Sequence record: NZ_CP090008.1
Length of the DNA stretch: 64,000 bases
From: a plasmid
Strand: one strand, 5' to 3'
Of the stretch, positions 27,340 through 55,613 are shown one piece after another (position 1 is the stretch's first letter; each line of letters starts with the position of its first letter). The translations under genes were made by a program, and so were the position numbers. Under the pieces are notes generated by a model that saw only the letters and a list, made by a program, of their open reading frames with translations, ran no database searches and was not told where the DNA came from.

Positions 27340-27578
27340 TGTATTTATCAAAAACTCTAAGCAGGCTTAGCCTGCTAACTCATGACAGAAAAGAAAGTTC
27401 GGCTTATAATGAAGGTGAACAATACCAATCCGTTGTCTTTAATAGGGCTTTGCCTAGCCTGTATCAAAAACTGGATGAACAAGAGTCATGAGATAACTCG
27501 AATATGCCTTGAGCATGAAAATAAAATTACTAATAGCCTCTTGTTCTATTGTTCAATAGTTAACAGGAGGTTTTTGTA

Positions 27579-28746
27579 ATGGAAGTTATGATTGAAACTT
27601 GTTGTGGAATTGATGTCCACCAAAAGTCTATCGTTTGTTGTATTCTAGATGGTCCACTAGAAAGCAATAAACCTAAAAAGATTCAGAAAAAATTTGGTAC
27701 AACAACTATAGCTCTCCAAAACGCCTTAGATTGGTTATTGGAAAATCACGTCACACATGTCTTTTTTGAAAGCACTGGCCAATATTGGGTACCACTCTTT
27801 AATATATTCTCAGACTCAGAACTCAATTTGATATTAGCTAACCCCCAACATATTAAGAATGTGCCTGGTCGAAAAACAGACATGAAAGATGCCGAATGGA
27901 TTGCACAGCTCGGACGTTGTGGACTTATTGAGCCATCTTACATTCCAAGCCCTGAAGTGATGCAGTTACGTTTACTCACTCGTAGGTTACGTTCTTACAA
28001 ACAACGTCAAACTCAAATAAAGAATGAGATTCATAACCTCTTACAACGTGCTAATATCAAACTAACCAGCTATCTTTCTGATATCTTCTCTAAGACAGGA
28101 CAGTCTCTTTTAACGCTCTTTATCAATGGGGAACTCATTGATTATGACAATGTGACAGCTTGTATTCACAAGCATGTCAAAGCAAGTCCCGAAGAATTAA
28201 TGGAGGCCATGAATGGGAAGTTGTCACTGGAGGATCGATTTCTCTTGGAGCAAAGCCTAGAAGAATATCAATTGTATCAAAAACTCATGAATAAATTAAG
28301 GAGTGAAATAATAGCTTATATCGAAAAGGAGTTTCCCTGAAGAAAATAGATTACTTCAAATGATTCCTGGTGTGAGTGAAACTTGTGCAGCCACAATTTT
28401 AGCTGAGATTGGACCAGATGTGAAGGCTTTTCAATCAGACGCACACTTAGCTTCTTGGGCTGGGCTCTGCCCAGGATCTTATGAAAGTGCTGGCATTAAA
28501 AAATCCTCACATATCACGCAAGGAAATCGATATATCAAGCAGGCTTTGACCATGTCGGGATTGATTGCGGCTCACTCTAAAGACAATGCGTTTTCATCTT
28601 TTTATAGCAAAATTTCCCAAAGAGGAAGTAAGATGAAAGCCGTCATTGCTTGCGCACATAAGCTACTTCGTATCATTTACAAAATTCTCGCAACACACCA
28701 AGAATACGACAAAGAAAAAGTGCTAGGACTGAGGCAACAGTTCTAA
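27579..28746 (+). pseudogene. IS110-family transposase split by a frameshift into DEDD N-terminal and Transposase_20 C-terminal ORFs.
   Basis: ORF 27579..28340 (DEDD-type N-terminus CCGIDVHQKS) and ORF 28360..28746 (IPGVSETCAATILAEIGPD...SWAGLCPGSYESAG) join if the frame shifts by 1 nt near 28330-28338. Confidence 0.6.
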
Positions 28747-28810
28747 CACCAAAAATTTAAAAAATCTCAATTACAGTATAGCACAAGAAGAGTTTTTTGC
28801 GCTATTTTTA

Positions 28811-30200: not shown

Positions 30201-30228
30201 ATAACATATAGGTAAATCTCTGATCAAG

Positions 30229-30262
30229 CTACAAAAAAGCCAGCACTTTGAGTACTGGCTTT
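30229..30262 (+). terminator. Rho-independent terminator (agccagcactttgagtactggct + TTTTT).
   Basis: Inverted repeat plus a T-run. Confidence 0.55.
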
Positions 30263-30269
30263 TTTGTAC

Positions 30270-30597
30270 AATCTCTTTTAAATTATATTATTTGATTTTA
30301 ATAGAAGTTAATTAATGTCCTAAAAAAAATCTTGTCCAATTCCACATAATTGCTACCTCTTTTATTCTCTTATTTTTTATGGTGTTATTGTATCAAAACT
30401 AAATGTTTTAACCCTTTTTTGTCGTTATCGAACAATAATTTATCAGAATCGGTAAAAATAAAACTTAGATAAGCAAAAAGTGATTAATTTAAGACCTCTT
30501 GTGATAATTGTAAAAATGATGCTGTGGTTGAAATATAATAGTCGTGTCAGTTAGGGAAACTAATAAGTGACCCGAATAGAATGAAAGGAGTAATAAG
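30270..30597 (+). promoter_or_regulatory. Promoter/leader region of the precursor-peptide array (duplicated at 33800-34134).
   Basis: About 330 bp is nearly identical to 33800-34134. A candidate -10 tataat lies at about 30535 preceded by TG. The RBS AAAGGAG lies 8 nt before the TTG start. Confidence 0.45.
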
Positions 30598-30756
30598 TTG
30601 AAAAACGAAAAAAATTTGCTCGAAGAGCTTGAAATTGACATTTTGGAGTTGGACGATGTAGAAGGTATTCCAGCAACAGCTGCATCAAGTGGTAGCGGTG
30701 GTAGTAGTACGTGTGGGTCAACCTCATGTTCATCATGTTCATCAAGTTGTGCTTAA
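30598..30756 (+). CDS. RiPP precursor peptide copy 1 (TTG start; KNEKN variant).
   Basis: (M)KNEKNLLEELEIDILELDDVEGIPATAASSGSGGSSTCGSTSCSSCSSSCA. An acidic helical leader is followed by a Ser/Thr/Cys-rich core. Confidence 0.75.
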   Translation: MKNEKNLLEELEIDILELDDVEGIPATAASSGSGGSSTCGSTSCSSCSSSCA

Positions 30757-30806
30757 GGCATAGTGCAATCATCTCGTTAAAAAAAGAAAGGAACATAAAA
30801 TAAAGA

Positions 30807-30965
30807 ATGAAAGATGAAAAAAATTTGCTCGAAGAGCTTGAAATCGACATTTTGGAGTTGGACGATGTAGAAGGTATTCCAGCAACAGCTGCATCAAGTG
30901 GTAGCGGTGGTAGTAGTACGTGTGGGTCAACCTCATGTTCATCATGTTCATCAAGTTGTGCTTAA
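30807..30965 (+). CDS. RiPP precursor peptide copy 2.
   Basis: MKDEKNLLEELEIDILELDDVEGIPATAASSGSGGSSTCGSTSCSSCSSSCA (52 aa). Confidence 0.8.
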   Translation: MKDEKNLLEELEIDILELDDVEGIPATAASSGSGGSSTCGSTSCSSCSSSCA

Positions 30966-31015
30966 GGCATAGTGCAATCATCTCGTTAAAAAAAGAAAGG
31001 AACATAAAATAAAGA

Positions 31016-31174
31016 ATGAAAGATGAAAAAAATTTGCTCGAAGAGCTTGAAATCGACATTTTGAAGTTGGACGATGTAGAAGGTATTCCAGCAACAGCTG
31101 CATCAAGTGGTAGCGGTGGTAGTAGTACGTGTGGGTCAACCTCATGTTCATCATGTTCATCAAGTTGTGCTTAA
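31016..31174 (+). CDS. RiPP precursor peptide copy 3 (leader E17K variant).
   Basis: Same as copy 2 except ttgaagttg (ILKL) for ttggagttg (ILEL). Confidence 0.8.
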   Translation: MKDEKNLLEELEIDILKLDDVEGIPATAASSGSGGSSTCGSTSCSSCSSSCA

Positions 31175-31224
31175 GGCATAGTGCAATCATCTCGTTAAAA
31201 AAAGAAAGGAACATAAAATAAAGA

Positions 31225-31383
31225 ATGAAAGATGAAAAAAATTTGCTCGAAGAGCTTGAAATCGACATTTTGGAGTTGGACGATGTAGAAGGTATTCCAG
31301 CAACAGCTGCATCAAGTGGTAGCGGTGGTAGTAGTACGTGTGGGTCAACCTCATGTTCATCATGTTCATCAAGTTGTGCTTAA
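31225..31383 (+). CDS. RiPP precursor peptide copy 4.
   Basis: Identical 209-bp unit. Confidence 0.8.
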   Translation: MKDEKNLLEELEIDILELDDVEGIPATAASSGSGGSSTCGSTSCSSCSSSCA

Positions 31384-31433
31384 GGCATAGTGCAATCATC
31401 TCGTTAAAAAAAGAAAGGAACATAAAATAAAGA

Positions 31434-31592
31434 ATGAAAGATGAAAAAAATTTGCTCGAAGAGCTTGAAATCGACATTTTGGAGTTGGACGATGTAGAAG
31501 GTATTCCAGCAACAGCTGCATCAAGTGGTAGCGGTGGTAGTAGTACGTGTGGGTCAACCTCATGTTCATCATGTTCATCAAGTTGTGCTTAA
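31434..31592 (+). CDS. RiPP precursor peptide copy 5.
   Basis: Identical 209-bp unit. Confidence 0.8.
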   Translation: MKDEKNLLEELEIDILELDDVEGIPATAASSGSGGSSTCGSTSCSSCSSSCA

Positions 31593-31642
31593 GGCATAGT
31601 GCAATCATCTCGTTAAAAAAAGAAAGGAACATAAAATAAAGA

Positions 31643-31801
31643 ATGAAAGATGAAAAAAATTTGCTCGAAGAGCTTGAAATCGACATTTTGGAGTTGGACG
31701 ATGTAGAAGGTATTCCAGCAACAGCTGCATCAAGTGGTAGCGGTGGTAGTAGTACGTGTGGGTCAACCTCATGTTCATCATGTTCATCAAGTTGTGCTTA
31801 A
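31643..31801 (+). CDS. RiPP precursor peptide copy 6.
   Basis: Identical 209-bp unit. Confidence 0.8.
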   Translation: MKDEKNLLEELEIDILELDDVEGIPATAASSGSGGSSTCGSTSCSSCSSSCA

Positions 31802-31851
31802 GGCATAGTGCAATCATCTCGTTAAAAAAAGAAAGGAACATAAAATAAAGA

Positions 31852-32010
31852 ATGAAAGATGAAAAAAATTTGCTCGAAGAGCTTGAAATCGACATTTTGG
31901 AGTTGGACGATGTAGAAGGTATTCCAGCAACAGCTGCATCAAGTGGTAGCGGTGGTAGTAGTACGTGTGGGTCAACCTCATGTTCATCATGTTCATCAAG
32001 TTGTGCTTAA
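31852..32010 (+). CDS. RiPP precursor peptide copy 7.
   Basis: Identical 209-bp unit. Confidence 0.8.
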   Translation: MKDEKNLLEELEIDILELDDVEGIPATAASSGSGGSSTCGSTSCSSCSSSCA

Positions 32011-32060
32011 GGCATAGTGCAATCATCTCGTTAAAAAAAGAAAGGAACATAAAATAAAGA

Positions 32061-32219
32061 ATGAAAGATGAAAAAAATTTGCTCGAAGAGCTTGAAATCG
32101 ACATTTTGGAGTTGGACGATGTAGAAGGTATTCCAGCAACAGCTGCATCAAGTGGTAGCGGTGGTAGTAGTACGTGTGGGTCAACCTCATGTTCATCATG
32201 TTCATCAAGTTGTGCTTAA
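32061..32219 (+). CDS. RiPP precursor peptide copy 8.
   Basis: Identical 209-bp unit. Confidence 0.8.
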   Translation: MKDEKNLLEELEIDILELDDVEGIPATAASSGSGGSSTCGSTSCSSCSSSCA

Positions 32220-32269
32220 GGCATAGTGCAATCATCTCGTTAAAAAAAGAAAGGAACATAAAATAAAGA

Positions 32270-32428
32270 ATGAAAGATGAAAAAAATTTGCTCGAAGAGC
32301 TTGAAATCGACATTTTGGAGTTGGACGATGTAGAAGGTATTCCAGCAACAGCTGCATCAAGTGGTAGCGGTGGTAGTAGTACGTGTGGGTCAACCTCATG
32401 TTCATCATGTTCATCAAGTTGTGCTTAA
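32270..32428 (+). CDS. RiPP precursor peptide copy 9.
   Basis: Identical unit. It is followed by terminator-like hairpin ggacttagt...accaagtcc + TTTT at 32498-32540. Confidence 0.8.
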   Translation: MKDEKNLLEELEIDILELDDVEGIPATAASSGSGGSSTCGSTSCSSCSSSCA

Positions 32429-32497
32429 GGCATAGTGCAATCATCTCGTTAAAAAAGAAAGGAACATAAAATAAAAAAGGAAACAAGAGAAATAAGT

Positions 32498-32540
32498 AAA
32501 GGACTTAGTTCTGTATTTTACAGGACCAAGTCCTTTTAGT
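32498..32540 (+). terminator. Terminator after the precursor array.
   Basis: Imperfect 9-bp inverted repeat with a T-run. Confidence 0.45.
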
Positions 32541-32559
32541 TTTACCTTGATTCGTTAAT

Positions 32560-33790
32560 AAGAAAAATGGTCTAGCTTGTTCCAATTTACTTATTCGACT
32601 TAAATCTCTTTTCGGAATCGTTAAACATCTCAGACTTAAAGATGCCGAATAAGGTTTCCATCATACTATTATCTATACTATTTCTCTGTAATATTTTGTT
32701 CTAGCATAACTATCACTTGTAACAAGTTCGATGACGTAGAAAGATTATAGGTAATAATTTCGCTATTAACGTTATCTAAAATTAGCGACAAATAGAGTTT
32801 TTAGCTGTTTACTGGAATGGCAAATTCTGTCACATCTGAGTAGCATTCTTTTCATTGATTTTTGATGTTTCAAATAGGTGATGATTAAGATTCTATGCTT
32901 TCTTGCGAACCTATCTTTGGTAGGAATAATACTTCCGTTTACGACGTATTCTAGCGATTAAGCCAAGAACTTTCATCAAACGTTGGATCTTTTTATGATT
33001 TATCACAAAGCCATGTTTTCCCAATTTAAGAGTCATTCGACGATAACCATAATTTCCTTTATGCTCATAATAAATTGTCTGAATTTCGTCTTTAAACTAT
33101 TTCTCTTTGTCAAGCCCCTCCAGTTGCTTCAACTGATAGTAGTAAGTTGAGCGAGGTAAACGAGCCGTTTCAAGAAGCAAATCTAGTCGAAATCCTCCTG
33201 AAGCCATTTCTCTAATTGTCTCTGCTTTTCTCGCTGTAAGGCTTCGTCCCTGTCTTCTAGCTCTTTTAACTTTTTTAGGTAAGCCACCTCGGTACGTAAG
33301 CGTTCATTCTCCTCTTGGAGTCGCTCTAGTTCTGTCATTTCTTCCCAAGATTTCTTATGTTTACGTCCCATTTTAGGTGCTCCCCCTCTTGTTTTCTCAA
33401 CAATAGTATACCCATTTTTCTTGTATTGTGCTGTCCAATTTGTCAATAGCGAAGGATTCGGTAGAGCATAATCTAAAGATACACTTTTTCGTGAACGACC
33501 TTCAAGTAGGACTTTATCAATCATTTCTTGTTTTAGTTCTGGAGAATAGTAACAATTCTTACCTTTCTTGACAATTTCTACTCCGTAACGATCAATTAAT
33601 TTCACCATGTACTTTAGACCAGAAACATCCACATCAAATTTTTTTGAAAGCTGTTTGAAGCTTTGTCCTTGTTTTCTTAGTTCATAAATCTGAACTTTAT
33701 CGTCATAACTCAATTTCATAATAAAACACCCCAAAAGTTAGATTTTTTCTGTCTAACTTTTGGGGTGCAGTTCATCAGTGTATTAGGAGT
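32560..33790 (-). mobile_element. IS3-family element remnant (orfA intact, orfB region degraded).
   Basis: orfA lies at 33183..33734. The terminal inverted-repeat hairpin caccccaaaagttaga...tctaacttttggggtg lies at 33737-33778. The orfB-homologous segment 32560-33180 has no long ORF. Confidence 0.6.
33183..33734 (-). CDS. IS3-family transposase OrfA (HTH + leucine zipper).
   Basis: [40 protein letters not shown]... has an HTH and a C-terminal coiled coil, typical of IS3 OrfA. Confidence 0.7.
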
Positions 33791-34134
33791 CATTAATTTT
33801 TAACAATTTCTTTTAAGTTATATTATTTGATTTTAATAGAAGTTGATTAATGTCCTAAAAAAAATCTTGTCCAATTCCACATAATTGCTACCTCTTTTTA
33901 TTCTCTTATTTTTTATGGTGTTATTGTATCAAAACTAAATGTTTTAACCCTTTTTTGTCGTTATCGAACAATAATTTATCAGAATCGGTAAAAATAAAAC
34001 TTAGATAAGCAAAAAGTGATTAATTTAAGACCTCTTGTGATAATTGTAAAAATGATGCTGTGGTTGAAGTATAATAATCGTGTCAGTTAGGAGAGCTAAT
34101 AAATGACCCCAGATAGAATGAAAGGAGTAATAAG

Positions 34135-34271
34135 TTGAAGATCGAAAAAATTTACAAGAAGAGTTTGAAATCGACATTTTGGAGTTAGATGATATAGAAG
34201 GAATTCCATTAACAGATGTATCAAGTGGTAATTATTACGTATGGAATAACCTTATGCTCATCAAGTTTTGA
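34135..34271 (+). pseudogene. Divergent 10th precursor-like gene, out of frame by 1 nt in an A-homopolymer.
   Basis: It follows a duplicate of the array promoter. It begins TTGAAGATCGAAAAAA and has one fewer A than the array copies. With the frame restored it reads (M)KIEKNLQEEFEIDILELDDIEGIPLTDVSSGNYYVWNNLMLIKF. The leader is conserved and the C-terminal region is different and Cys-free. Confidence 0.5.
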
Positions 34272-34377
34272 AAAAAATAGGAAGATGGACGTGCGATAGA
34301 TAAACAGAAATATATATAATGTTCTTTAATTTTGAACAATTATATTTGTTTTCATAGTCATAGAGGAATAAGAACAG

Positions 34378-35154
34378 ATGAGAAATTTAAAATATGTCAT
34401 CCAAGAGGACAGTATGCTGCTATCATATTTTGGAAAAAGATGTAGGATTGCTTTACCTAAAAAGCTATCTAAGGATGAAGTTCTACAACTAGTTATTTCA
34501 AATATAAATGAAATTTTTGGATTAAAGCAAGAGTTTTCAAAATCACTCACCATGTTTAAGATTGGGGAACAAATCTTTCGACTTCCCAAGGAAGCCGAAA
34601 CTTCCTTAAAACGCTTTTTCCCAGCTATAAGATTACTTTCTGAGGAAGAAGAGTCTTTACTGAGACAAAATTTGCAGTTTCTAGGAAATTTGAAAGGAAC
34701 GTTCTACCTTAAAACAGATGGAAAGCAAATGATTCATCAATTAGAAGAAGGAATTTCTATTTATCACGTGCTGGACCAAGCAGACACTATATTTAAAACA
34801 CCAACTATTAATCGTCTTCTAGATATTAATATTTTGAAAAATATATATTTTGAGAGTTTAATAGACTCATTTGATATCATCAATCGTCAAGGAACATGTC
34901 ACTTAGAAATTTTTACTAATGAAAAAGAAAAATATAGTTTTGATGATACCAACATGGAGGATCTTGTTTTTAAAGCAGTCAAAAAAATAATGGAGTCTAA
35001 ACTAAGTTATAGATACGTAGGCATAGGGAGAAATAGAGGCGAATGCCTTGAGGATTATTTGATGAAACATGGTGCCTCTAGTACTCCTATATTTTGTCAA
35101 GATAGTTTATCGAAATTCTTGGGTCTTGTACTTGCTAAGAAGGAGAATCTATGA
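34378..35154 (+). CDS. Hypothetical protein, first gene of the RiPP biosynthetic operon.
   Basis: 258 aa. It is translationally coupled (ATGA) to the YcaO gene. Confidence 0.4.
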   Translation: MRNLKYVIQEDSMLLSYFGKRCRIALPKKLSKDEVLQLVISNINEIFGLKQEFSKSLTMFKIGEQIFRLPKEAETSLKRFFPAIRLLSEEEESLLRQNLQFLGNLKGTFYLKTDGKQMIHQLEEGISIYHVLDQADTIFKTPTINRLLDINILKNIYFESLIDSFDIINRQGTCHLEIFTNEKEKYSFDDTNMEDLVFKAVKKIMESKLSYRYVGIGRNRGECLEDYLMKHGASSTPIFCQDSLSKFLGLVLAKKENL

Positions 35155-36881
35155 ATATTCAGCAATACGTAAAAGTAATACTGTCAAAATCTTGTGAAAC
35201 ACAGCCAATAGAGCTAGTCTACCAAGGGATGAGGTTATATTTTGGAGAACTGGATTATTTTTACTCAAACAGAGTAGAAGAAGGGATAATCATTTTCTGG
35301 GATGAAGACAAACTGATTGTAAGTCCCGTATTTCATAAGAAAGAAAAAAATTGTAGCATCTGTTTCTTAGAACATCGGAGGAAATTTAAAATAGATGATT
35401 CTATTGGAAGAGATGGCGACACGATTGAAATAGAGGATAACAATTTATTTGAAGAAAAATTTCTTTACGTAATATCTAACCTGATACAGGTCAAATCGCA
35501 GCCTCCTTTATTTGATTATTTTATAATTGAGGATTGGAAAATTTCAAAGTGTCAATTCTTTCGAATTGCTAATTGTGACACCTGTATTTCTAATAGAGAA
35601 AGTGTAGAAGAGATCTTGGCTACAGGAAATAGTCGTTGCCAGGCATCCTCTTTGAGAGAAAAGTTGGGAGATTATTCTGCTTATATTCAATTGGGTAATT
35701 CTGATACTGGGATTTTCAATAGAGAGTTAACAACTCTACTAGATAATGGTGTAACGGTTGAACTACAATACTCACTTTCTAATAATGAGATTATTTCGGG
35801 AATTGGTATTGATAAAAGCTATAAAAGAGCAAAAGCTAAGGCATTTCTAGAAGCGATGGAACGTTATAGTGGCATTACCTCCAAGGGGCAGAAACGATAT
35901 TGGTTCTCCATAGAAGACTTGAGAGGGAAGTCAATCGATTTCCTAAATCCTAACGATTATTTTCTTGAACTTGAGAAAGAAGAGGTGGCTAGTACGAATA
36001 AATTTTTCTGGTTGCCAGCTTACAATTACCAAAGTAATGACTATGCTTTAATACCTGAAGATTTTATCATTTATAAAACAGAGAGAACTCCTGAAAGTAA
36101 AAAATTAATGAATATGAGTTCAAATGGACATGCAATTGGAAATAGCTATAAAGAAGCGGTTATTTTTTCACTTTTTGAAATGTACGAACGAGATCATTTT
36201 CTTGTTCATTGGTACGAGAAACAGCCACCTCAAGAAATAAATCAAGATAGCATTCTAGATGAAGATATTCACCATTATTTAAGTATGATTAAAAACTTAG
36301 GGTATGAGGTCTCGATTTATCAAATGCTTTCTAGCAAGGTGATAAGCATTTATTGGACCATCGCTAGAGGAAAAAATGGTAGCAAGTTTGCGACTTATTC
36401 AACAGCAGGTGCTCATCTTTTTGGAAAGACGGCAATTATTTCTGCATTAAAAGAGCTATATTTTGCACTTTATATTTATGATGAAGACGTCGAACATATT
36501 AAAGAAAATGGGCGACAAATGCAAGCTCAAGATGTTAAAACTGTGGCAGATCATGCAATTTATTATTCAATTGAGGATAGAAGTATACAGTTTAATTTTT
36601 TGAAAGGTGTAGAGGTTATCGATTTTGAAATAAAAGATGACTACTCTATCGAGTTAGATTCCTACTATTCAGATCTATTGGAGTTTACGAATAAGCTATT
36701 TGGGAATTTTTATATCGTAGATAATACCCCAAAAGGTTTGAAGGAAATTGGGTTATGCGAGGTGAAAGTGTTTGTTCCTGGTATGCAAGATATGAATTTT
36801 GGTTATGCAAATCAGTACATCAATCACCAGCGGATTCATCTGGACGGTAATCAGGAAGTACCAATTCACCCCTTCCCATAA
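35151..36881 (+). CDS. YcaO-domain cyclodehydratase (azoline-forming) with N-terminal Cys-rich/E1-like or RRE-type extension.
   Basis: YcaO signature MSSNGHAIGNSYKEAVIFSLFEMYERDH and the C-terminal proline-rich end ...VPIHPFP. Confidence 0.75.
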   Translation: MNIQQYVKVILSKSCETQPIELVYQGMRLYFGELDYFYSNRVEEGIIIFWDEDKLIVSPVFHKKEKNCSICFLEHRRKFKIDDSIGRDGDTIEIEDNNLFEEKFLYVISNLIQVKSQPPLFDYFIIEDWKISKCQFFRIANCDTCISNRESVEEILATGNSRCQASSLREKLGDYSAYIQLGNSDTGIFNRELTTLLDNGVTVELQYSLSNNEIISGIGIDKSYKRAKAKAFLEAMERYSGITSKGQKRYWFSIEDLRGKSIDFLNPNDYFLELEKEEVASTNKFFWLPAYNYQSNDYALIPEDFIIYKTERTPESKKLMNMSSNGHAIGNSYKEAVIFSLFEMYERDHFLVHWYEKQPPQEINQDSILDEDIHHYLSMIKNLGYEVSIYQMLSSKVISIYWTIARGKNGSKFATYSTAGAHLFGKTAIISALKELYFALYIYDEDVEHIKENGRQMQAQDVKTVADHAIYYSIEDRSIQFNFLKGVEVIDFEIKDDYSIELDSYYSDLLEFTNKLFGNFYIVDNTPKGLKEIGLCEVKVFVPGMQDMNFGYANQYINHQRIHLDGNQEVPIHPFP

Positions 36882-36906
36882 TCTTATAATTAAAAGAGGA
36901 TAAAAA

Positions 36907-37749
36907 ATGAATTTAATTGAAATTAACAATTTAAGAAAAAACTATGGCGTAAAAGAAGTCTTGAAAGGTTTGGATTTGTCCCTAAAGAATGGTCAAGTTT
37001 ATACATTGCTTGGAAAAAACGGTGCAGGGAAAACAACATTTATCAATATTTTACTTAGACTAATCAAGGAAGATTCTGGTAGCGTAGTCTCAAACGTTAG
37101 CGTAAAAAAAGAAGTTGGTGTAGTCTTTCAGGAAGACTATTTTCCAAAAGAGACAACAGTTTCGGATTTGATAAAGCTACAAGCTTCATTTTTCCATAAG
37201 AAGGTTAATGTTGATGAAGAATTAAAAATAATGGGATTAGAGAAAGAGAAGTTTCAAAAGGTAGGAACACTTTCGGGAGGACAAAAACGGAAACTTTCGT
37301 TCCTATTAGCGACCTTACATGATCCTAAACTTTTGATTTTGGATGAACCTACTGCTGGTATGGATTATGATAGTGTAGAAAAGTTTGTTCAACAGATTAA
37401 AAAATTAAAGGCAAAGGGAAAAACAATTCTCTTAATTACACACGATTTGTACCAAATTGAATCTTTTGCAGATTATATTCTGTTGCTAAATGAAGGTGTA
37501 TTCGAAGAGAAAATCTCAGTAAATGATATGTTTATGGAATCGTTGTATGAATTTCCCAAAGAGATGGTTATGAGTGGAGCTGCGAAGGAGCAATTGTTTT
37601 ATAAGAATGATCAAACTTATGTTTTCAGTAGTCCATACGCACAAAAAATAATTGAACAAAATGGTATTAGGAATCCAGAAAACTTTAAGCGTCATAAACA
37701 AGTAGTAGATATTTTCAAACGTATTTCATTTGTAGAAGGAGATAAATAA
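36907..37749 (+). CDS. ABC transporter ATP-binding protein.
   Basis: Walker A LLGKNGAGKTT. Signature LSGGQKRKLSF. Walker B LLILDEPTAGMD. Confidence 0.85.
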   Translation: MNLIEINNLRKNYGVKEVLKGLDLSLKNGQVYTLLGKNGAGKTTFINILLRLIKEDSGSVVSNVSVKKEVGVVFQEDYFPKETTVSDLIKLQASFFHKKVNVDEELKIMGLEKEKFQKVGTLSGGQKRKLSFLLATLHDPKLLILDEPTAGMDYDSVEKFVQQIKKLKAKGKTILLITHDLYQIESFADYILLLNEGVFEEKISVNDMFMESLYEFPKEMVMSGAAKEQLFYKNDQTYVFSSPYAQKIIEQNGIRNPENFKRHKQVVDIFKRISFVEGDK

Positions 37750-38468
37750 TGATTTCAATTGTTCAGCAGATAAAAAATAGTTTACAAAATAAGCGATTTA
37801 TCATTTTTACGATTTTATTCCCAGTGGTATTTTACGTTTTCTTTATAAAGCAACTTAAGTTTGTAAACACAGATGATAGTGGAATGATTGCATTGTTTTC
37901 TGCTATGTTTGGAATCGCAGGAAGTGGCTTGAACACCTTTAGTCAAAAAGTATCGAAAGACAAAGACTACTTCCGTATTATGGATAAAATCTCGCCCTAT
38001 TCTTATGCACATTATATGTTTGATAGTGTATTAGCACAAACGATCTTGAATATTTTAATTTTGTTCTCAGTTACTTTAGCTGGTGTATTGATTGGTAAAT
38101 TAAATGTAACAGGGTCTTACTTGTCAATTTCTAGTCTCCTGCTATACTTTGGCTTTTATTATATTGTTATTGGCTTCCTATTAGGAACAGTATTTAATGA
38201 TGAAACACTTGCTTCTGCCTCAATGCCAATCTTTTTCCTATTCATGATGCTTAATATTACTCCAAATATCATGACAACATTAAAAATGCCAGATATCATT
38301 GTAACGATTCAGAAATTTTTCCCGGGCTATTATTATAATGAAGTTTTATTGCATCAGACTCCAGAAAAGTTCTTACAAGCATGCTTGGTCATTACAATTT
38401 ATGTTTTTATCGCAGGGACTATCACAGTAATTGTAAATAAATTGTTACAAATTAATAGGAGAGACTAA
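37749..38468 (+). CDS. ABC-2 type transporter permease.
   Basis: Six hydrophobic helices. Its start overlaps the stop of the ATPase gene. Confidence 0.6.
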   Translation: MISIVQQIKNSLQNKRFIIFTILFPVVFYVFFIKQLKFVNTDDSGMIALFSAMFGIAGSGLNTFSQKVSKDKDYFRIMDKISPYSYAHYMFDSVLAQTILNILILFSVTLAGVLIGKLNVTGSYLSISSLLLYFGFYYIVIGFLLGTVFNDETLASASMPIFFLFMMLNITPNIMTTLKMPDIIVTIQKFFPGYYYNEVLLHQTPEKFLQACLVITIYVFIAGTITVIVNKLLQINRRD

Positions 38469-39562
38469 TGGTAGAAATGACTTCAGATAGGTTGTTTTCA
38501 CACTATGAACAATTACATAGGCGACCTGAGCCAGGTTTTTCAGAAGAAAAAACTAAGTGTTATATTAAAGACTTCTTAAGTCCATATCCAGAACTAAAAA
38601 AAATTTCGGAAGGTAAGATGGGATTGATTTATCAATACGTAGGGCGAAAGGAAGAAAAACATCATTATGATTTAGCTTTTCGTGCTGAATTAGATGCTGT
38701 AGAAATGGATGAATTCTATGGAACCTACTATCATGGTTGTGGACATGATGCACATACAAGTATCCAACTGGAATTAATCACCTATGTTTGTCGTAACAAA
38801 CCAAAGCTAAATGTACTTTTCATTTTTCAAGCAAGTGAAGAAAAGTATGGTGGTGCAAAAGAAGTTTGTAAGTTTTTGAAAGACAAAAGGATTACTTTAT
38901 CGAGAATATATGCTTTACACGTTACCTCGGATTTGTATCCCAATTATGTATCAATCAATAAGGGAGACATTCTAGCTGCTGGTTTGACTTGCCATTTAAA
39001 ACTTTCATTAAAGAATAGTGGACATGTCAGTAATCATGGGGACAGTGCAGCGAGTTTATTTTCTAAATTAGTTTTACTATCAGAAAGCCTAGATGAACTG
39101 GATTGTCAGTGTAGAATTACTAACTTTTTCACCAATGGCTCTCATAATGTATCTCCTACAGAAATAAAATTTAATATTACGTTTAGAGGAAAAAGTAGTG
39201 ATATTTGCAAGCAGCAACATCAGAAATTTTTAGATCAGTTAAACCTAGAATATCAAAAGGAAGTTATTATGGATTATCCTTTATTACATAATAATACAAT
39301 GCTATATGAATGGGTTGAACAAGTATTATCTCAAAGTAAAGTAGTAAAGACTCTAAAAACTCCATTTTTGTTTTCTTGTGATGATTTTGCCTTCTATGGA
39401 AAAGAGCTAGATGTACCGACATGTTATTTCTTTATTGGTGCATATAGTCAGGGTCATCCGATTCATTCGAATGAATTTATTACACCGAAGGCTAGCTTAT
39501 TAAGAGGTTTGTATGTGATGACATTATTGATAGAAAAGGAGAATGAGCGAATTAATGGTTAA
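38468..39562 (+). CDS. M20-family amidohydrolase/peptidase.
   Basis: Metal-binding motif YHGCGHDAHTS, typical of M20D aminoacylase-like enzymes. Confidence 0.55.
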   Translation: MVEMTSDRLFSHYEQLHRRPEPGFSEEKTKCYIKDFLSPYPELKKISEGKMGLIYQYVGRKEEKHHYDLAFRAELDAVEMDEFYGTYYHGCGHDAHTSIQLELITYVCRNKPKLNVLFIFQASEEKYGGAKEVCKFLKDKRITLSRIYALHVTSDLYPNYVSINKGDILAAGLTCHLKLSLKNSGHVSNHGDSAASLFSKLVLLSESLDELDCQCRITNFFTNGSHNVSPTEIKFNITFRGKSSDICKQQHQKFLDQLNLEYQKEVIMDYPLLHNNTMLYEWVEQVLSQSKVVKTLKTPFLFSCDDFAFYGKELDVPTCYFFIGAYSQGHPIHSNEFITPKASLLRGLYVMTLLIEKENERING

Positions 39563-42074
39563 AAATGTATATTATAGAAAAACAAATTTTTCGAATGGCG
39601 AATTTTCTAAGTTTTTTCAAAAAGAAATATTTGAAAAAATACGAAATAATCAAAAATATCGCCTCAATTTGTTAAAACAAGTGAGTTCTATTCGAGAATC
39701 GGGAATTGAACAATTAAATCAAGTTATTCAGGAATGTCCGGAAGGTAAAGATAAGAAGCAATTGTTAAAGTTCTCGCATGACTTCTACAATAATAGAGGA
39801 GATTTAGGAAAGAAATTTCAAAAAATAGTATTTCTACTTCCACCAGATTTAGCATCAGAATTTGATTCTTATTTTAAAATGAAAGAACAAATTTTGATGA
39901 TTGATAATAGAATTGAAGAACAGGTAGATCAACAATATTTAAATGAGAAACAAATGATGCTACAGGGACTTCGTGATAATCTAGATTTTGTTCAGAACAC
40001 AAAGATGATTGGGCAGACTCTCTATCAAAAGTTAGAAAAGCTACTCAAAACAGATGTTAAAAATCATAATAAGAAGCAACGGCAAATGGATGGTTTTTTG
40101 TACAATTATTATACTCGTATTGCTACAAAGACAAGTCCCTTGGGGTTATTAGGCACAACAAGTGTTTATGGGCAAGAAGAATTTCATTTAGATAGAGAGA
40201 TTTTTATGTCGGTGAACTCTTCAATCATTTTAAAGATATTTGATAGGCTTTATCAAAACCCAAAAAATCAGCCAGTTTTGAACTTCAAACTAAATGAGAC
40301 ACTAATTTTAAAAGAGAATAAGTATTACGTAACGGTTTTCAATGATATCAAAGGAAAAAGTTTATACCGTAATCGTCAGGAATTGGTTACACTCCCTGAA
40401 AGTAAAATCTTAAATGAGATTTTACAGCTTTTCAAAGGAAAAGGGCAGTTATCGGGACGTGACATCTTAGATAAACTCTCTCAAAAAGGGCAAGAAAATC
40501 TTCTTACAAAATTGTTGGAGAATTGTATTTTACTTCCAGCTGATCAATTAACTATTGAAGGTAAGCAAAGTATGTCAGAAGCGTTTCTGCAGAAATTAAA
40601 GGGTATTTCTTCGGTTATGTTTTCAAATGAAATTGAGATTTTCGAAAGAATAGTTGCATTTGAGCAAGAAGAGTTTTCTTGGGAGATATATGATCGATTG
40701 ACGGAAGAAGTTCATAATCTTGTTCTGTATTATGGCATTGAAGGATTTGACAAATCATCGTATGTTTCGATAGATAAGCTTGCTTCTAATACTGAGAATG
40801 ATTTAGAAAAAGAGGTTCAAGTTGTAAAAGAACAACAGAAGTGTTTCAATGATCTATCAAAATTTATTTCTATTTTTGATATTTCAACACGCAGTAAGTA
40901 TTTAGCCTATGAGATGCTTCGAAAAAAATATGGTGGAGAATTCAAGCCTCGAAACGCTCGAGAAATGAGTAAATTTTTGCGAGATCTATCAACTACGCTT
41001 TTTCAAAGAGATGGCTATTGGATGGAATCATTTGGCTATTTAGGAGAAAAGTACCAGCATAAAATTGATAATCAACTCTTGAAGTTGAAGAAGGAAATTC
41101 TTGAGCAATTGCTTGGTCAAGATTCGGGGGATGGATCAGAACTATTGATTTCAACCGAATTGTTGAATAGTTCAACGAAACAATTAGAGAAACTTGTTGG
41201 ACAAAGCCATAAATCTCGTGCTTATTTTTTACAAGTTAGTCCAAGTAATCAAATAGTCTTTAATCATATTTATAAAGGCTATGGAGTCTACCGTAGACGG
41301 TTTAATCATTATCTTCCAACAGATCAAGAAAGTTATAGATTAGATGGAGCTTTAGTAGATATTCCAATGACATTTGGTTTCAATGCAAATATTCGAGAAA
41401 GTACAGATAAGACCTTATCCTTACCATTAGGTGAACGAGCTTTTGCCAGCTCTGAACAATTGAACTGGTTAGATTTAGGTTTTCGACTTTCAAAACAATC
41501 AAAGGAAATCGAAGTGTTCGAAAAGGCAACGGGTGCTATTATTTATCCACACTTCTTAGGAAGTTTAATAACAGTCGCCCTCCCTTCATTAGTTGCGGTT
41601 TTTAATTCAATTACTCTCAATGATTCTATTTATTTTGATTTTGGAGAATTGTTACTCAGACAGAAAATAAAAAATCATTCTCAGGAAAAAGTAGTGGTCC
41701 CAAGACTTTGCTTTGAAAAAGTTGATTTTATATTATCTCGAAAAAAATGGTATCTTGCTTGTGAAAAATTACATACCATTTTACAGGAAGATACGTCAAT
41801 GGGTCAAAAATGGTTAGAAGTTATCGAGTATTTTGAAGAAGAAGAGTTGCCATTATCTTTCTTTGTAAAAGACTTTTTCGAGTCTTATAATCAGGACTCG
41901 GAGTTACTAAAAACAAAACCACTATACATCAATTTTGAATCTTTTTTAAGCTTTAAAGCATTTGTAGGTTTGGTGAAGAAGAAGGATAGAATTTTAATCG
42001 AAGAGGTCTTGCCAGAATGTACTGATACGGAAACAGATATGATTACAGAGTTAATTGTTGAAACAAATGATTGA
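39543..42074 (+). CDS. Large LanB-like dehydratase, glutamylation-domain type (putative).
   Basis: 843 aa. Its size and its position before two SpaB_C-like genes suggest this. I make no motif-level confirmation. Confidence 0.4.
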   Translation: MSELMVKNVYYRKTNFSNGEFSKFFQKEIFEKIRNNQKYRLNLLKQVSSIRESGIEQLNQVIQECPEGKDKKQLLKFSHDFYNNRGDLGKKFQKIVFLLPPDLASEFDSYFKMKEQILMIDNRIEEQVDQQYLNEKQMMLQGLRDNLDFVQNTKMIGQTLYQKLEKLLKTDVKNHNKKQRQMDGFLYNYYTRIATKTSPLGLLGTTSVYGQEEFHLDREIFMSVNSSIILKIFDRLYQNPKNQPVLNFKLNETLILKENKYYVTVFNDIKGKSLYRNRQELVTLPESKILNEILQLFKGKGQLSGRDILDKLSQKGQENLLTKLLENCILLPADQLTIEGKQSMSEAFLQKLKGISSVMFSNEIEIFERIVAFEQEEFSWEIYDRLTEEVHNLVLYYGIEGFDKSSYVSIDKLASNTENDLEKEVQVVKEQQKCFNDLSKFISIFDISTRSKYLAYEMLRKKYGGEFKPRNAREMSKFLRDLSTTLFQRDGYWMESFGYLGEKYQHKIDNQLLKLKKEILEQLLGQDSGDGSELLISTELLNSSTKQLEKLVGQSHKSRAYFLQVSPSNQIVFNHIYKGYGVYRRRFNHYLPTDQESYRLDGALVDIPMTFGFNANIRESTDKTLSLPLGERAFASSEQLNWLDLGFRLSKQSKEIEVFEKATGAIIYPHFLGSLITVALPSLVAVFNSITLNDSIYFDFGELLLRQKIKNHSQEKVVVPRLCFEKVDFILSRKKWYLACEKLHTILQEDTSMGQKWLEVIEYFEEEELPLSFFVKDFFESYNQDSELLKTKPLYINFESFLSFKAFVGLVKKKDRILIEEVLPECTDTETDMITELIVETND

Positions 42075-43168
42075 GAAAAGAGGAGGAGATTATGGTATAT
42101 AAATTATCTGTATTTATCAATGATTTAGCTTTTTCAAACAGTCTAATCATTAAGATTTATAGTTTTTTAAATAATAAAGCAATTAAAGAAATTTGGGTGA
42201 AGAAATCAATTCAGCGTGGCCACCATCTTGAATTGTTTTCTCTCAATAAAGAGTATTTGAAGACAATGGAAGATTTTATTGTTGGAGAACTGTCAAGTTA
42301 TTCCCCAGTTAATGTTCCTGAAATGAAATTAAAGAAGCAAATCATGAGTGTTGCAGCTGCAGAAAACACGGAGGCTGACTTAAATATTCAACCGGATGGG
42401 ACAATTCTGTTTGAAGAAGTTGAAGAACTATATCAAGATAAAGTTAGGTTAAATTCCTATGAGACTGAGTTGGTTGTGGAAAAGAAAAAGATGGAGTTGA
42501 TTCTCTATCTTGAAAGTATAGGATTCTTCAACGAGCCTGAAAATCAGCAAAATATTTTATTGGTTAAACTATTCTTAAATTTAGGGTTACTTTTTAATAA
42601 CAATTTAAAAATGGGTTATCTATCTATGAAGTCAAATATTCTATTCTTTAACTTACAACTGGAGAAGTTGAAGGGTACAATGTCGCCGGAGAAGTATAAA
42701 CGGTATCATCACTTAGTTAATTTTCTAGATGAGACAGAACAGAGTTATATCAATGAGAATATTGAAATCTTTCTGAATGAAAATAAAAGTTCATTCTATA
42801 AGCAATTTGTAGAAGAACTTTATCAATTTTTTAGTGATGAATTTGAAAAAGGAAACCTTTATTATGAAAACCTAAGTGATGCAGAGAGTTTTGTTCAGAA
42901 ATCACGAAAGAATGGTCAGATAACAGATTTTCACAAAAAATTCTTTACGAATCAAGCTTTTCTTTCCCATCATGCTTCGGAACCCTTTGTGATTTATCGT
43001 TATACAGTTGATGTTCTTTATCAAATTATGCCGTTGTTAAACGTTAATCCGCTTCGAAAACAGAAAATTACAAAAATGGTAAGTGATAAGGTTGAGACAG
43101 GCTATGATATGACCTGGGAAGACAGTTATGCTGACATGCAAGAATTATTTAACAAGAAGGTACAATAA
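42071..43168 (+). CDS. SpaB_C-like domain protein (LanB elimination domain or pyridine synthase candidate).
   Basis: The N-terminal pattern YKLSVFINDL...IKEIWVKKSIQRGHHLELFSL parallels the Lant_dehydr_C signature (W...FIRY..GPHLRLR). Confidence 0.45.
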   Translation: MRKEEEIMVYKLSVFINDLAFSNSLIIKIYSFLNNKAIKEIWVKKSIQRGHHLELFSLNKEYLKTMEDFIVGELSSYSPVNVPEMKLKKQIMSVAAAENTEADLNIQPDGTILFEEVEELYQDKVRLNSYETELVVEKKKMELILYLESIGFFNEPENQQNILLVKLFLNLGLLFNNNLKMGYLSMKSNILFFNLQLEKLKGTMSPEKYKRYHHLVNFLDETEQSYINENIEIFLNENKSSFYKQFVEELYQFFSDEFEKGNLYYENLSDAESFVQKSRKNGQITDFHKKFFTNQAFLSHHASEPFVIYRYTVDVLYQIMPLLNVNPLRKQKITKMVSDKVETGYDMTWEDSYADMQELFNKKVQ

Positions 43169-43696
43169 ATGCATATTTTACTTGAAAATGGAGAAAAATA
43201 TATTTTTGATGGAGTCTACTATAGAAAATTAAATTCAAAGACTAGGCACTTATATTTTCATCAGTTAAAACATAACCATTCCATTTGTTTAGTTAAGAGT
43301 CAGCGTGTGAAGTGTCCGTCTCTTACTTTTGAATTGGTGGATGTGGACAATATTGGTGATCTTCCTGTATTGGATAAAAATGATTGTAAGAAAATAGTTG
43401 AATTCTTTGCCAAAAACATGACAAAAACTTTTGATAAAGTGATGGAAGTTAGTCAAACAATGAATCAGCTTGGATCTCCGACTTTTTCAGATGGTATCGA
43501 CACAACAGTAGGAAAATCAATTGTAAAAGTATTAGCTGCACAGTTATTACGCACCTACTTGAGAGAGCAGGGGTGGATAGTACGAGTAGATTTTGAAAAT
43601 TACCCTAGTAGAAAGGGACAGTTTTTAAAAGTAGATCTCCTCGAAGGCAAAGATATTTATTGTGGGGTAGTAAATGAATACGAACTTAATTACTAA
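43169..43696 (+). CDS. Hypothetical protein in the RiPP operon.
   Basis: 175 aa and translationally coupled. No motif. Confidence 0.35.
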   Translation: MHILLENGEKYIFDGVYYRKLNSKTRHLYFHQLKHNHSICLVKSQRVKCPSLTFELVDVDNIGDLPVLDKNDCKKIVEFFAKNMTKTFDKVMEVSQTMNQLGSPTFSDGIDTTVGKSIVKVLAAQLLRTYLREQGWIVRVDFENYPSRKGQFLKVDLLEGKDIYCGVVNEYELNY

Positions 43697-45353
43697 TGAC
43701 TCTTTTTTTCATAAAAAGTATTTAGAAAGTCTGGAAGAAGGACGTAAATATGCTATTTTGGTAGTAGATCACCTCTTCTTTTTCAAGAAAGAGGAAGGAT
43801 TCCTTGAGGATTTTTTATATACAGTTTCTTTATACAATAGGACTAAAACAAAAAATGTATTAGCTAGCATGTTCTCAACAAATTACCAAAATAGCGAGTT
43901 GGAGATAGAAAAAGCAAAACATCTTATGGACAGGCTAGTCTTTAAAAAGGGACAGATAGGAGTACTGTATCTAGAAAATCAAGCCCTCTCCTATGTTTGT
44001 ATTAAGAAAAAAAGAACATCTCAAACCAAAAGTAAAATGGAGCTTGGGACTTTATTAGATAAGGTCACTATTGGTGAATCGGATGGCTTTCGAGAAAAAA
44101 CTGTGAGTGAACTGTCAAAATATGCACAAGGTTTTTTAGACAAAACGGTAGCCTATCGTAAATTTTTCGATTTAGATTCAGATTATTTTCCAGGAGTGGG
44201 CATTGAATATGCTGTAACAGACAAATATACAGAATGTGGTTATGGTCGTTCTGCATCTTTTCATGATTCTACTAATATTGCTCTCCTAGAAGCGATTGAA
44301 AGATATTCCTCCCTTTTTTACCCCTATCAAAATAAAGATATTTATGCTAAGTTCTCAGACTTGGACAATGCTATTCACCCCAAGAATTTCATTCTCCCAT
44401 CTTCTGAAAAAAATCCTTTTATGCAGTACCATGATAATTTGGAGATTTATTGGACAGAGGCGGAATCTCTGAGAGATAAGAAAACAGTACTAGTGCCTGA
44501 ACAATTAGCAGTATATGGAGATTCTTTCTTTAGAGATAAAAAGAAACAGCATCGATTCATATATGATAGTTCAAATGGTGTTTCTTTAGGAGGATCATTT
44601 GAGGAAGCTGTATTATATGGACTATTGGAGTTAATTGAGAGGGATAATTTTTTAATGACATGGTATGGTAGGATTCCAATCAATGAAGTTAGACTGGAAT
44701 CTCTGGGCTTGTCTGAAGATACTTTAAATACAGTTCATCGTGCTCAACGAGACGGTTTTGATGTCAAAGTTTACGATATTTCAATGGAGTTAGGAGTTCC
44801 TTCTTTTTGGGCCTTAGTAAGAAGTTTGAAAGGGCATAAAATGTATTCTTATACAGCTGCAGGGAGCAACCCAATCCCTCATAAAGCAGCGGAGTCAGCA
44901 TTGCTAGAAGCTCTGGTTGGAATTAAAATCCATGATAATATAAACGCTGAATTTGGGACAACGGTTCCGACTGAGGTTATTGAGATGGAGGATCACGTCA
45001 ACTATTATTCAAGTGATCAGCATAAAGGTGCCTATGATTTTCTGCAAGATTCCCATGTAACTGACTTATCGACAGAAAATTACATTAAAGCCTTTAATAC
45101 GAAGACTTATTTGAAAAAACTAATTAATAAAGTATTAAAAGAATATGAAGATATCTATGTCGTTAATTTAACTTCAAAAGAAATGGAGAAACTAGGAATC
45201 TATACTGTGAAAGTTATTGTTCCAGGACTTCTTCCAATGACTTTTGGTGTACAAAATGAAAGAATATCTGAACCTCGTATCAATAGAGAAAGGAGTAGGA
45301 GAGGTCTTGAGGAAGTGAAACAGATTAGTTGCTATCCTCACCCTTTCCCTTAA
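43674..45353 (+). CDS. Second YcaO-domain protein.
   Basis: YDSSNGVSLGGSFEEAVLYGLLELIERDNF and the C-terminal CYPHPFP. Confidence 0.75.
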   Translation: MNTNLITNDSFFHKKYLESLEEGRKYAILVVDHLFFFKKEEGFLEDFLYTVSLYNRTKTKNVLASMFSTNYQNSELEIEKAKHLMDRLVFKKGQIGVLYLENQALSYVCIKKKRTSQTKSKMELGTLLDKVTIGESDGFREKTVSELSKYAQGFLDKTVAYRKFFDLDSDYFPGVGIEYAVTDKYTECGYGRSASFHDSTNIALLEAIERYSSLFYPYQNKDIYAKFSDLDNAIHPKNFILPSSEKNPFMQYHDNLEIYWTEAESLRDKKTVLVPEQLAVYGDSFFRDKKKQHRFIYDSSNGVSLGGSFEEAVLYGLLELIERDNFLMTWYGRIPINEVRLESLGLSEDTLNTVHRAQRDGFDVKVYDISMELGVPSFWALVRSLKGHKMYSYTAAGSNPIPHKAAESALLEALVGIKIHDNINAEFGTTVPTEVIEMEDHVNYYSSDQHKGAYDFLQDSHVTDLSTENYIKAFNTKTYLKKLINKVLKEYEDIYVVNLTSKEMEKLGIYTVKVIVPGLLPMTFGVQNERISEPRINRERSRRGLEEVKQISCYPHPFP

Positions 45354-45359
45354 TATAAT

Positions 45360-46268
45360 ATGAAAGAAACTGACAAATGGTTGTCCTACCATATCTTTTG
45401 CCATAATCTTCTTCATCATGACCGTATCATTTGTAAGTTAAATAAATGGACCTCTGAGAAACATCTTTACCCTTATTTCTTCATTCGCTACTGGGAAGGG
45501 GGGCCTCATATCCGTTTTAGGATAAAGAGGAAAGATACCATTCGGGATGACTATTACAATACTCTCGTTGACCTCTTAGAATCGGAATTATCTGATGAGA
45601 GTATCATTCTGACAAAAGAAGAGTATTATCAAGGTCATAAGTTAGATGGAGAGAAAATTCCTATTGAGGAATTGCCTTGGTATGAGAATAACACTATTGT
45701 CCCGATTACCTATGTTCGAGAGAATGAGAGGTACGGGGGAAAAGAAGCAATTGAGCATGCGGAATATGTTTTTTACCGCTCTAGTCAATTAGTCTCAACT
45801 ATGTTAGAAGGTTGTATGAACTGCCACATGATGATTCGGATGCTATTTTATGTCCATATTTATGAGAAAGTAAATGCAGCAATTAAAGAGTGTGGTATAA
45901 ACTTTGATTTCCCCCAATTCTATGCCAATTGTTTCTCGTATTGGAATGAACTTTATGACTTGAAAGATGCAGAATATATAAGAGACATTGCTAATGCTAT
46001 CAAACACTCATTTGAGGACAAAGAAGAAAAAATAAATACTGTCTTTTCATTTATTCAGCCACAAATTCAGAACAATTTTATTGACTCTTTAGTAGAGTAT
46101 TTAAAAAATGTTTCTCAATTAAAGGGAAACAAGATGATGCGTTCTGTCCTGTTTTCTCAAATGCATATGTTCGCGAACCGTCTCGGAATTCCGATTGAAT
46201 ATGAATGTGCCATATACAGTTATTATAACCAGAAAAATACAAATTTAACTTGCCAGAAGGGAGCATAA
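45360..46268 (+). CDS. SpaB_C (Lant_dehydr_C) domain protein; thiopeptide-type [4+2] cyclase or eliminase candidate.
   Basis: WLSYHIFCH...LYPYFFIRYWEGGPHIRFRIK matches the FIRY..GPHLRLR signature. Confidence 0.6.
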   Translation: MKETDKWLSYHIFCHNLLHHDRIICKLNKWTSEKHLYPYFFIRYWEGGPHIRFRIKRKDTIRDDYYNTLVDLLESELSDESIILTKEEYYQGHKLDGEKIPIEELPWYENNTIVPITYVRENERYGGKEAIEHAEYVFYRSSQLVSTMLEGCMNCHMMIRMLFYVHIYEKVNAAIKECGINFDFPQFYANCFSYWNELYDLKDAEYIRDIANAIKHSFEDKEEKINTVFSFIQPQIQNNFIDSLVEYLKNVSQLKGNKMMRSVLFSQMHMFANRLGIPIEYECAIYSYYNQKNTNLTCQKGA

Positions 46269-47081: not shown

Positions 47082-47098
47082 AAGCAAGGAGAATTGTT

Positions 47099-55610: not shown

Positions 55611-55613
55611 TCT

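Follow-up and report, generated by a model that had tools for sequence, protein, structure and literature searches.

An ordinary pseudogene, probably the remnant of the original structural gene, in front of a plasmid-borne thiopeptide operon

Overview

The frame-broken reading frame at 34135–34271 of plasmid record NZ_CP090008.1 – numbered here within the 64,000-nucleotide stretch that was analysed, hereafter the window – is most probably an ordinary pseudogene, the remnant of the original structural gene of a thiopeptide cluster, and the promoter in front of it likely serves the enzyme operon that follows. We put the probability of this reading, which rests on sequence comparison, at about 0.82.

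On either side of the pseudogene lie the two functional parts of the cluster. Upstream, at 30598–32428, nine thiopeptide precursor genes, each encoding 52 aa, are arranged in tandem with a period of 209 bp; they were recognised from their ORFs, from matches to NF033400 and with Tandem Repeats Finder, which reports 9.0 copies with 99% matches. An array gene scores 43.2 and 40.6 bits against the NCBIfam models for thiazolylpeptide-type bacteriocins (cut-offs 30 and 25), and all of the array genes carry a run of seven A's (A7) and a core ending in ...STCGSTSCSSCSSSCA. Downstream, at 34378–47845, ORFs, profile searches and the annotation of the record delimit the biosynthetic operon, which encodes a 258-aa protein, a YcaO protein, an ABC ATPase and permease, an M20 peptidase, a LanB-like dehydratase (assigned by Pfam and by the record annotation), a second YcaO protein, a protein with a thiopeptide-type bacteriocin biosynthesis domain and a nitroreductase-like protein; a further operon protein gives only a weak match to a pyridine-synthase model, far below its cut-off. 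The 258-aa first biosynthetic protein (34378–35154) has no match in Pfam or NCBIfam. Its exact sequence is indexed in 2492 blocks of a public assembly collection, so the thiopeptide element must be very common in human-associated metagenomes. Array, operon and pseudogene, together with the promoter copies, hairpins and regulatory genes discussed below, are all on the plus strand.

Further downstream of the cluster, the window holds an AAA_5 ATPase and McrBC-family gene pair, that is, a restriction-type system (54321–56915), as well as SSB and PD-(D/E)XK nuclease genes (57504–58911) consistent with a mobile element backbone.

The pseudogene and its lesions

The pseudo-precursor begins with a TTG codon (34135–34137), preceded by a ribosome-binding site, GAAAGGAG (34120–34127), that is the same as that of the array genes. 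Nucleotide alignment with an array gene reveals three indels, of −1, −8 and about −9 nt. The first falls in an A run (34145–34150) that counts six bases here (A6) and seven in nine of nine array genes; the first-pass annotation of this DNA had correctly recognised the difference, but it placed the run at 34146–34151 and took the missing A for the sole lesion. The 8-nt deletion sits after about position 34232, in the stretch corresponding to a GSGGSS linker, and the deletion of about 9 nt is in the core, between two copies of a 9-nt repeat.

Read unaltered from the TTG codon, the frame stops after 17 codons (TAG, 34186–34188) and encodes the peptide MKIEKIYKKSLKSTFWS. With one A added, it gives a 45-aa product, MKIEKNLQEEFEIDILELDDIEGIPLTDVSSGNYYVWNNLMLIKF, which ends at TGA 34269–34271 and whose last 13 residues (NYYVWNNLMLIKF) include no Cys, Ser or Thr. 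That tail had previously been described as a completely different C-terminal segment, yet it turns out to be homologous DNA read in a shifted frame: the −1 and −8 indels sum to −9, so that raw frame 0 re-enters the old core frame, where the window reads TYGITLCSSSF and the lineage of strain DB-B5 (introduced below) TYGLTSCLSSF, as against TCGSTSCSSCSSSCA in the array. Compared with the array core, TYGITLCSSSF has lost two Cys and two Ser residues. Because of the 8-nt and about 9-nt deletions, restoring the seventh A still does not produce a thiopeptide core.

Profile searches agree with the alignment. The A7-corrected 45-aa product reaches 19 bits against the NF033400/TIGR03892 profile (cut-off 30), and does so over profile positions 3–31 only, that is, in the leader. 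The pseudo-precursor thus adjoins the thiopeptide maturation genes, lying 107 bp upstream of their operon, and has neither the uninterrupted ORF, nor the score, nor the Cys/Ser/Thr-rich core of a thiazolylpeptide precursor. What it does have is what defines a pseudogene – clear homology to a functional gene combined with disabling lesions, which are inherited across lineages and to which more are being added in individual strains.

There was no match to the locus in a phage collection or among viral contigs. A set of 5.8 billion proteins queried with the 45-aa product returned no candidates, a negative that is uninformative because the array precursors, which share the sequence EIDILELDD with it, were missed too.

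The site of the gene in related clusters

Relatives of the cluster were found through homologues of the 258-aa first biosynthetic protein (54–71% identity), which were traced to their contigs. Five were examined: Streptococcus equinus ATCC 33317 (L016), Streptococcus sp. UMB0029 (L028), Enterococcus cecorum (L029) and two further contigs (L014 and L017). In five of five, the orthologue of the 258-aa gene is preceded, at a distance of 87–105 bp, by an intact precursor gene ending in …STCGSTSCSSCSSSCA; in UMB0029, two tandem precursor copies occupy the site. Homology extends well beyond the gene itself. The upstream flank of the pseudogene is 67% identical to that of UMB0029 over 405 nt (E = 7e-22) and 66% identical to that of E. 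cecorum over 260 nt, and its downstream spacer is 73–82% identical to those of UMB0029, L014 and E. cecorum. L014 has no comparable upstream flank since its contig begins inside the precursor gene, and in S. equinus and L017 the match to the pseudogene locus is confined to the gene itself and the beginning of the first biosynthetic gene.

As an intact precursor is found at this position in all five relatives, three of them with homologous flanks, we conclude that the pseudogene site is the ancestral site of the structural gene and that the nine-copy array with its promoter is the derived duplicate. Comparison of orthologous loci had been suggested by the first-pass annotation as a check; carried out in these diverged relatives, it reverses the polarity of that annotation's own headline, which had the array promoter duplicated to an off-frame gene at 33800–34271.

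The hairpin behind the gene tells a similar story. In both relatives whose sequences were folded, the precursor is followed by a strong hairpin and U-run (z = −4.4 in L014 and −2.6 in S. equinus). The corresponding segment of the window (34307–34352) is the decayed remnant of such an attenuator or terminator, with z = −0.03 in the window and −1.2 in DB-B5.

Decay across lineages and strains

The closest annotated record is the megaplasmid pIKMIN-B501 of Streptococcus salivarius DB-B5, with 93.5% identity, and a chromosome-sized NCBI record, CP145864.1, contains a copy that is 99.7% identical to the window. All three indels are common to the window and DB-B5 lineages, which are about 6–7% diverged; the gene therefore died before they split. 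Between these lineages, nucleotide identity is 85% in the pseudogene compared with 94% in the array genes and 93–94% in the upstream promoter region. The rate of nonsynonymous change follows the same pattern: pN is 0.090 for the pseudogene in the A7-corrected frame, 0–0.017 for the array genes and 0.024–0.026 for the enzyme genes, which means that the hypothetical peptide has changed its amino acids about four times faster than the neighbouring enzymes. The pN/pS ratio of the pseudogene, 0.43 in the A7-corrected frame, is based on only 15 differences and is in itself no proof of neutrality.

Variation within the population was surveyed in 31 sequences – the window and 30 contigs and records carrying the locus, among them metagenome assemblies of short reads from many studies, one finished plasmid and one finished record of chromosome size. 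The run is A6 in 23 of them (the window, L001, L003, L006, L008–L011, L018–L027 and L030–L034), two of which (L018 and L024) have also had their start codon changed from TTG to TTA. In seven others (L005 and L035–L040), the run is interrupted and reads AATAAA, which creates a TAA stop at codon 5. The run is thus six bases long in 30 of the 31 sequences, either fixed as A6 or replaced by AATAAA, and A7 appears once, in L004 (BNJU01001323.1, a public 161-kb contig). Over 7.9 kb aligned to window positions 32534–40433, L004 shows 8 substitutions and about 18 homopolymer indels, and several of these A/T indels would shift the reading frames of the M20 and LanB-like genes, both of them intact everywhere else. 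Given this load of homopolymer indels and of frameshifts in essential genes, the A7 of L004 is treated here as probable assembly noise, judged by the error profile of the contig rather than by reads, and single A7 or A6 calls in assemblies of this kind should be considered unreliable.

Of the interpretations offered by the first-pass annotation, it is the decayed paralogue that these data support, through the indels common to two lineages, the TTA (two sequences) and AATAAA (seven) alleles and the roughly fourfold faster amino-acid change.

Other readings of the remnant

The best surviving alternative, which we nevertheless regard as unlikely, is that the remnant has been kept as a cis-acting 5′ leader, whose upstream ORF or RNA structure would tune the translation or stability of the enzyme mRNA. 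The segment does sit between the promoter and the first enzyme gene, has been deleted in neither lineage and retains its ribosome-binding site and short ORF in most contigs. It is, however, the fastest-evolving stretch of the locus when compared with its neighbours, its upstream ORF is disrupted in 9 of the 31 sequences, no Rfam family matches it, and its 3′ part (34268–34377) folds no better than shuffled sequence (z = −0.03).

Considerably less probable is a phase-variable second substrate, or a leader-only decoy, in which slippage on the A run would switch on a leader-bearing peptide recognised by the enzymes. The leader is indeed still recognisable, as its 19 bits to thiazolyl_B attest, the ribosome-binding site and start codon are retained in most contigs, and, judging from the sequence, tRNA-Lys slipping by −1 on A-AAA-AAT would bring the leader back into frame. 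Low-level −1 slippage may occur on the A run of the A6 allele. Yet the 31 sequences contain no credible length polymorphism, and a run of six is below the tract lengths typical of contingency loci. The AATAAA substitution destroys the slippery run altogether in seven contigs, and in two others the start codon has gone; it is the existence of these alleles that makes even a decoy leader unlikely. In the peptide itself, the last 13 residues offer no Cys, Ser or Thr for modification, and between the lineages it has undergone 9 amino-acid changes and the loss of its stop codon. The phase-variable substrate proposed earlier accordingly finds no support.

Slightly weaker still is the case for a signalling peptide – either the 45-aa A7 product or the 17-aa MKIEKIYKKSLKSTFWS – acting on the regulator and kinase pair downstream of the operon, a LytTR response regulator (48858–49589) and a GHKL histidine kinase, which profile searches place together at 48858–50939. 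The idea, first put forward for a peptide sharing the leader, draws on the fact that no convincing pheromone gene was found near this pair and that the 17-codon ORF, with its strong ribosome-binding site, is closed by the same TAG in each lineage. Pheromones of LytTR/HPK10-type systems come from a conserved small ORF with a double-glycine leader, exported by a dedicated ABC exporter with a C39 peptidase. Neither candidate peptide here has a double-glycine (GG) motif, and no C39 peptidase-type exporter was detected among the cluster genes scanned; the two ABC genes at 36907–38468 are covered by their orthologues, which match ABC_tran and ABC2_membrane only. At the S. equinus locus, by contrast, a C39 exporter is present. 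Nor is the ORF conserved in any frame: the 17-aa version differs at 3 of 17 residues between the lineages, is reduced to 4 codons by the AATAAA allele and has no start in L018 and L024. It is, moreover, the frameshifted leader of a gene that is intact as a thiopeptide precursor in all five relatives.

Finally, a homopolymer sequencing error hiding an intact A7 gene can be dismissed, even though A6 versus A7 is a classic error site and one contig does read A7, because 30 of 31 sequences have a six-base run (A6 itself in 23), the exception, L004, has about 18 further miscalled A/T runs within 7.9 kb, and the A7-restored product would still be without a thiopeptide core.

The two promoter copies

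The region upstream of the pseudogene (33802–34134) is a copy of the region upstream of the array (30268–30597), the two being about 96% identical by nucleotide alignment within the window. This bears out the near copy noted in the first pass, at 33800–34134 and 30270–30597, and refines its limits. The similarity is unevenly distributed: upstream of the −10 box, 262 of 267 aligned columns are identical (98%), compared with 57 of 65 between the −10 box and the start codon. On the strength of its alignment to the array copy and its homology to the regions upstream of the precursors in UMB0029 and E. cecorum, the copy in front of the pseudogene is assigned to the ancestral position and is the putative driver of the biosynthetic operon.

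Both copies have the layout of a LytTR-regulated promoter – two imperfect direct repeats of 9–10 bp with a period of about 21 bp, a −10 box and a poor −35. In the copy in front of the pseudogene, the repeats GTGATTAATT-N11-GTGATAATTG (21-bp period) occupy 34016–34046, with the −10 box TATAAT at 34070–34075, 24 nt downstream; in the array copy, the repeats are at 30480–30510 and TATAAT at 30534–30539. The repeats, a candidate site for a LytTR-type activator, escaped a general repeat search and were recovered by a pattern search, which found this arrangement solely at the two promoter copies in the 64 kb. Repeats, −10 box and a TGTCAGTTAGG box are kept across genera, in Streptococcus sp. UMB0029 and E. 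cecorum; the −10 box reads TATAAT in UMB0029, as it does in the copies of the window and DB-B5, and TATATT in E. cecorum. For lack of a −35 box, the TATAAT at 34070 was missed by a promoter consensus scan. The LytTR regulator and kinase described above would be the candidate regulators of both copies; such control, like the activity of the promoter and transcription through into 34378, is predicted from sequence.

Rfam returned only two sub-threshold matches, both to Thr_leader, on the two strands of 30208–30304, with 37 and 29.6 bits against a gathering score of 55. As they coincide with the terminator hairpin behind a 222-aa gene, they were set aside as chance matches.

In S. equinus, the related cluster is preceded (L016, 214–5481) by genes for a LytTR protein, a LytTR response regulator, a histidine kinase and a C39-peptidase ABC exporter, and an ATTCAT…N15…ATTCAT box, its period 21 bp, occurs twice, at about 5185–5230 and 5350–5390. 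This layout points to pheromone-type control of the thiopeptide cluster family.

The history of the two promoter copies can be read from the sites that distinguish copies and strains. Between 33830 and 34034, 12 of 12 informative sites group by strain. From 34069 on, all of them group by copy and none by strain (4 sites between the −10 box and the start codon, and 22 coding columns). The upstream 240 bp or so of the two copies (33830–34069 and 30296–30533) thus bear the signature of homogenisation by gene conversion, and the tract has a sharp boundary, which lies in the interval 34034–34069, immediately ahead of the −10 box.

The array and its surroundings

Behind the array, a strong hairpin and U-run (32498–32545) are read as its terminator; the fold of 32425–32560 has −29.3 kcal/mol and z = −3.1. 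The interval that separates the array from the pseudogene's promoter copy holds a degenerate IS3-family element on the minus strand (32698–33774), identified by IS3-family transposase matches, HTH_Tnp_1 and HTH_21 domains and broken ORFs; it retains helix-turn-helix fragments only and contains no intact transposase.

The copy number and integrity of the array vary by strain (window 30599–32483; L001 6000–7401; L026 19–1426). The window has nine intact copies, the third of which (31016–31174) carries an E17K substitution. The DB-B5 array comprises seven units, one of them unannotated as a gene and apparently frameshifted and another of 51 aa, and that of CP145864.1 at least seven; in short-read contigs, the array is collapsed.

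An IS110-family transposase is also present upstream, at 27355–28808, split into two ORFs (27579–28340 and 28360–28746). Other contigs are without this insertion, their alignments skipping from 27354 to 28809. The window is 94–97% identical over 26.5–30.7 kb to contigs that match it at 99.7% over 32.1–34.4 kb, and the element is therefore a mosaic.

One metagenome contig, L023 (4267–5001), has neither array nor IS: its 222-aa gene leads into a single chimeric promoter, with array-type SNPs at the 5′ end and pseudogene-type SNPs at the 3′ end, followed by the pseudogene and the operon. This may be a real recombination between the 330-bp repeats that deleted every functional precursor or, equally likely, a collapse by the assembler, which worked with a k of 141 while the stretch of identity is longer, at 173 bp. 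In L010, a scaffold gap occurs at the place of the L023 junction.

A more speculative reading, which we consider doubtful, is that gene conversion keeps the promoter copies identical on purpose, placing array and operon under one upstream activating sequence, and that the 330-bp repeats would at the same time allow a RecA-mediated, one-way excision of the array (compare the L023 promoter), turning producers into immune non-producing ‘cheaters’ in oral populations.

A possible history of the locus

Under the pseudogene reading, the promoter and precursor gene would have been duplicated about 3.5 kb upstream in the S. salivarius lineage, and the displaced copy amplified into a tandem array – of nine genes in the window – with a strong terminator of its own. 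The in-operon copy, then redundant, would have decayed: the A run shrank from A7 to A6, deletions removed 8 nt and about 9 nt, core codons for Cys and Ser were replaced, and the attenuator hairpin behind the gene eroded. Its promoter (33802–34134) would have been retained because it now drives the enzyme operon (34378–47845). The pseudogene would simply be transcribed as part of a 5′ leader of about 300 nt, in which the eroded hairpin no longer attenuates. Transcription of the nine array genes, as far as the array terminator, would start from the twin promoter. As the upstream 240 bp or so have been homogenised, precursor supply and enzymes would answer the same input, for which a LytTR-type activator binding to the conserved direct repeats with their 21-bp period is a plausible candidate.

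Implications

The main value of the analysis lies in annotation: the label that the frameshifted ORF should carry is pseudogene, rather than second substrate, pheromone or assembly error. The pseudogene is an ordinary one whose history is well resolved and, beyond annotation, a small case of promoter duplication with concerted evolution. It also offers a small and clean example of how a peptide-antibiotic cluster may be reorganised, with precursor dosage raised by an amplified, displaced copy, the original copy and its attenuator left to decay, and the promoter kept for the enzymes and evolving in concert with its twin. For the expression or engineering of the S. salivarius thiopeptide, the two control regions and the real structural genes have been identified. 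Literature searches found no paper on the S. salivarius cluster, the core sequence or the pseudogene.

Comparison with known systems

A precursor gene, a hairpin and then the enzymes is the standard layout for ribosomal peptide antibiotics, and in lantibiotic-type operons (e.g. nisA–nisB) a structural gene is likewise followed by a leaky terminator and the enzyme genes. The relatives folded here (L014 and S. equinus) show this order of precursor, hairpin with U-run and enzymes, and the locus in the window appears to derive from it; the difference is that in the window both structural gene and hairpin have decayed, so that the promoter would feed the enzymes directly.

The in-operon precursors of S. 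equinus, UMB0029 and E. cecorum are the closest counterparts of the pseudogene. They share its position and its leader (…LEIDILELDDVEG(I/V)PATAASSG…), and UMB0029 and E. cecorum additionally have an upstream promoter region and a downstream spacer homologous to those of the window. They are, however, intact and terminate in …STCGSTSCSSCSSSCA, with a strong hairpin behind the gene in S. equinus, the one of the three that was folded, whereas the window copy has three indels, has lost Cys and Ser codons and retains only a decayed hairpin.

Homopolymer contingency genes, which are phase-variable, resemble the pseudogene in having a frameshift in a mononucleotide run near the 5′ end of the ORF, and their tracts are typically longer than A6. 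Here, by contrast, the tract is short (A6) and either fixed in length or broken by a substitution, and the ON length gives a coreless product that is neither functional nor conserved, with 9 amino-acid changes and a lost stop codon between lineages.

The four tclE–H genes of the thiocillin cluster were reportedly found to be identical by Wieland Brown et al. in 2009. These genes of Bacillus cereus ATCC 14579, referred to as prepeptide genes (PMC10704990), are similar to the array in that several tandem genes encode the precursor of one thiopeptide. The array in the window differs from them in having nine copies, in the IS debris that lies between these copies and the enzymes, in its own promoter copy and terminator, and in the dead tenth copy that remains at the original site.
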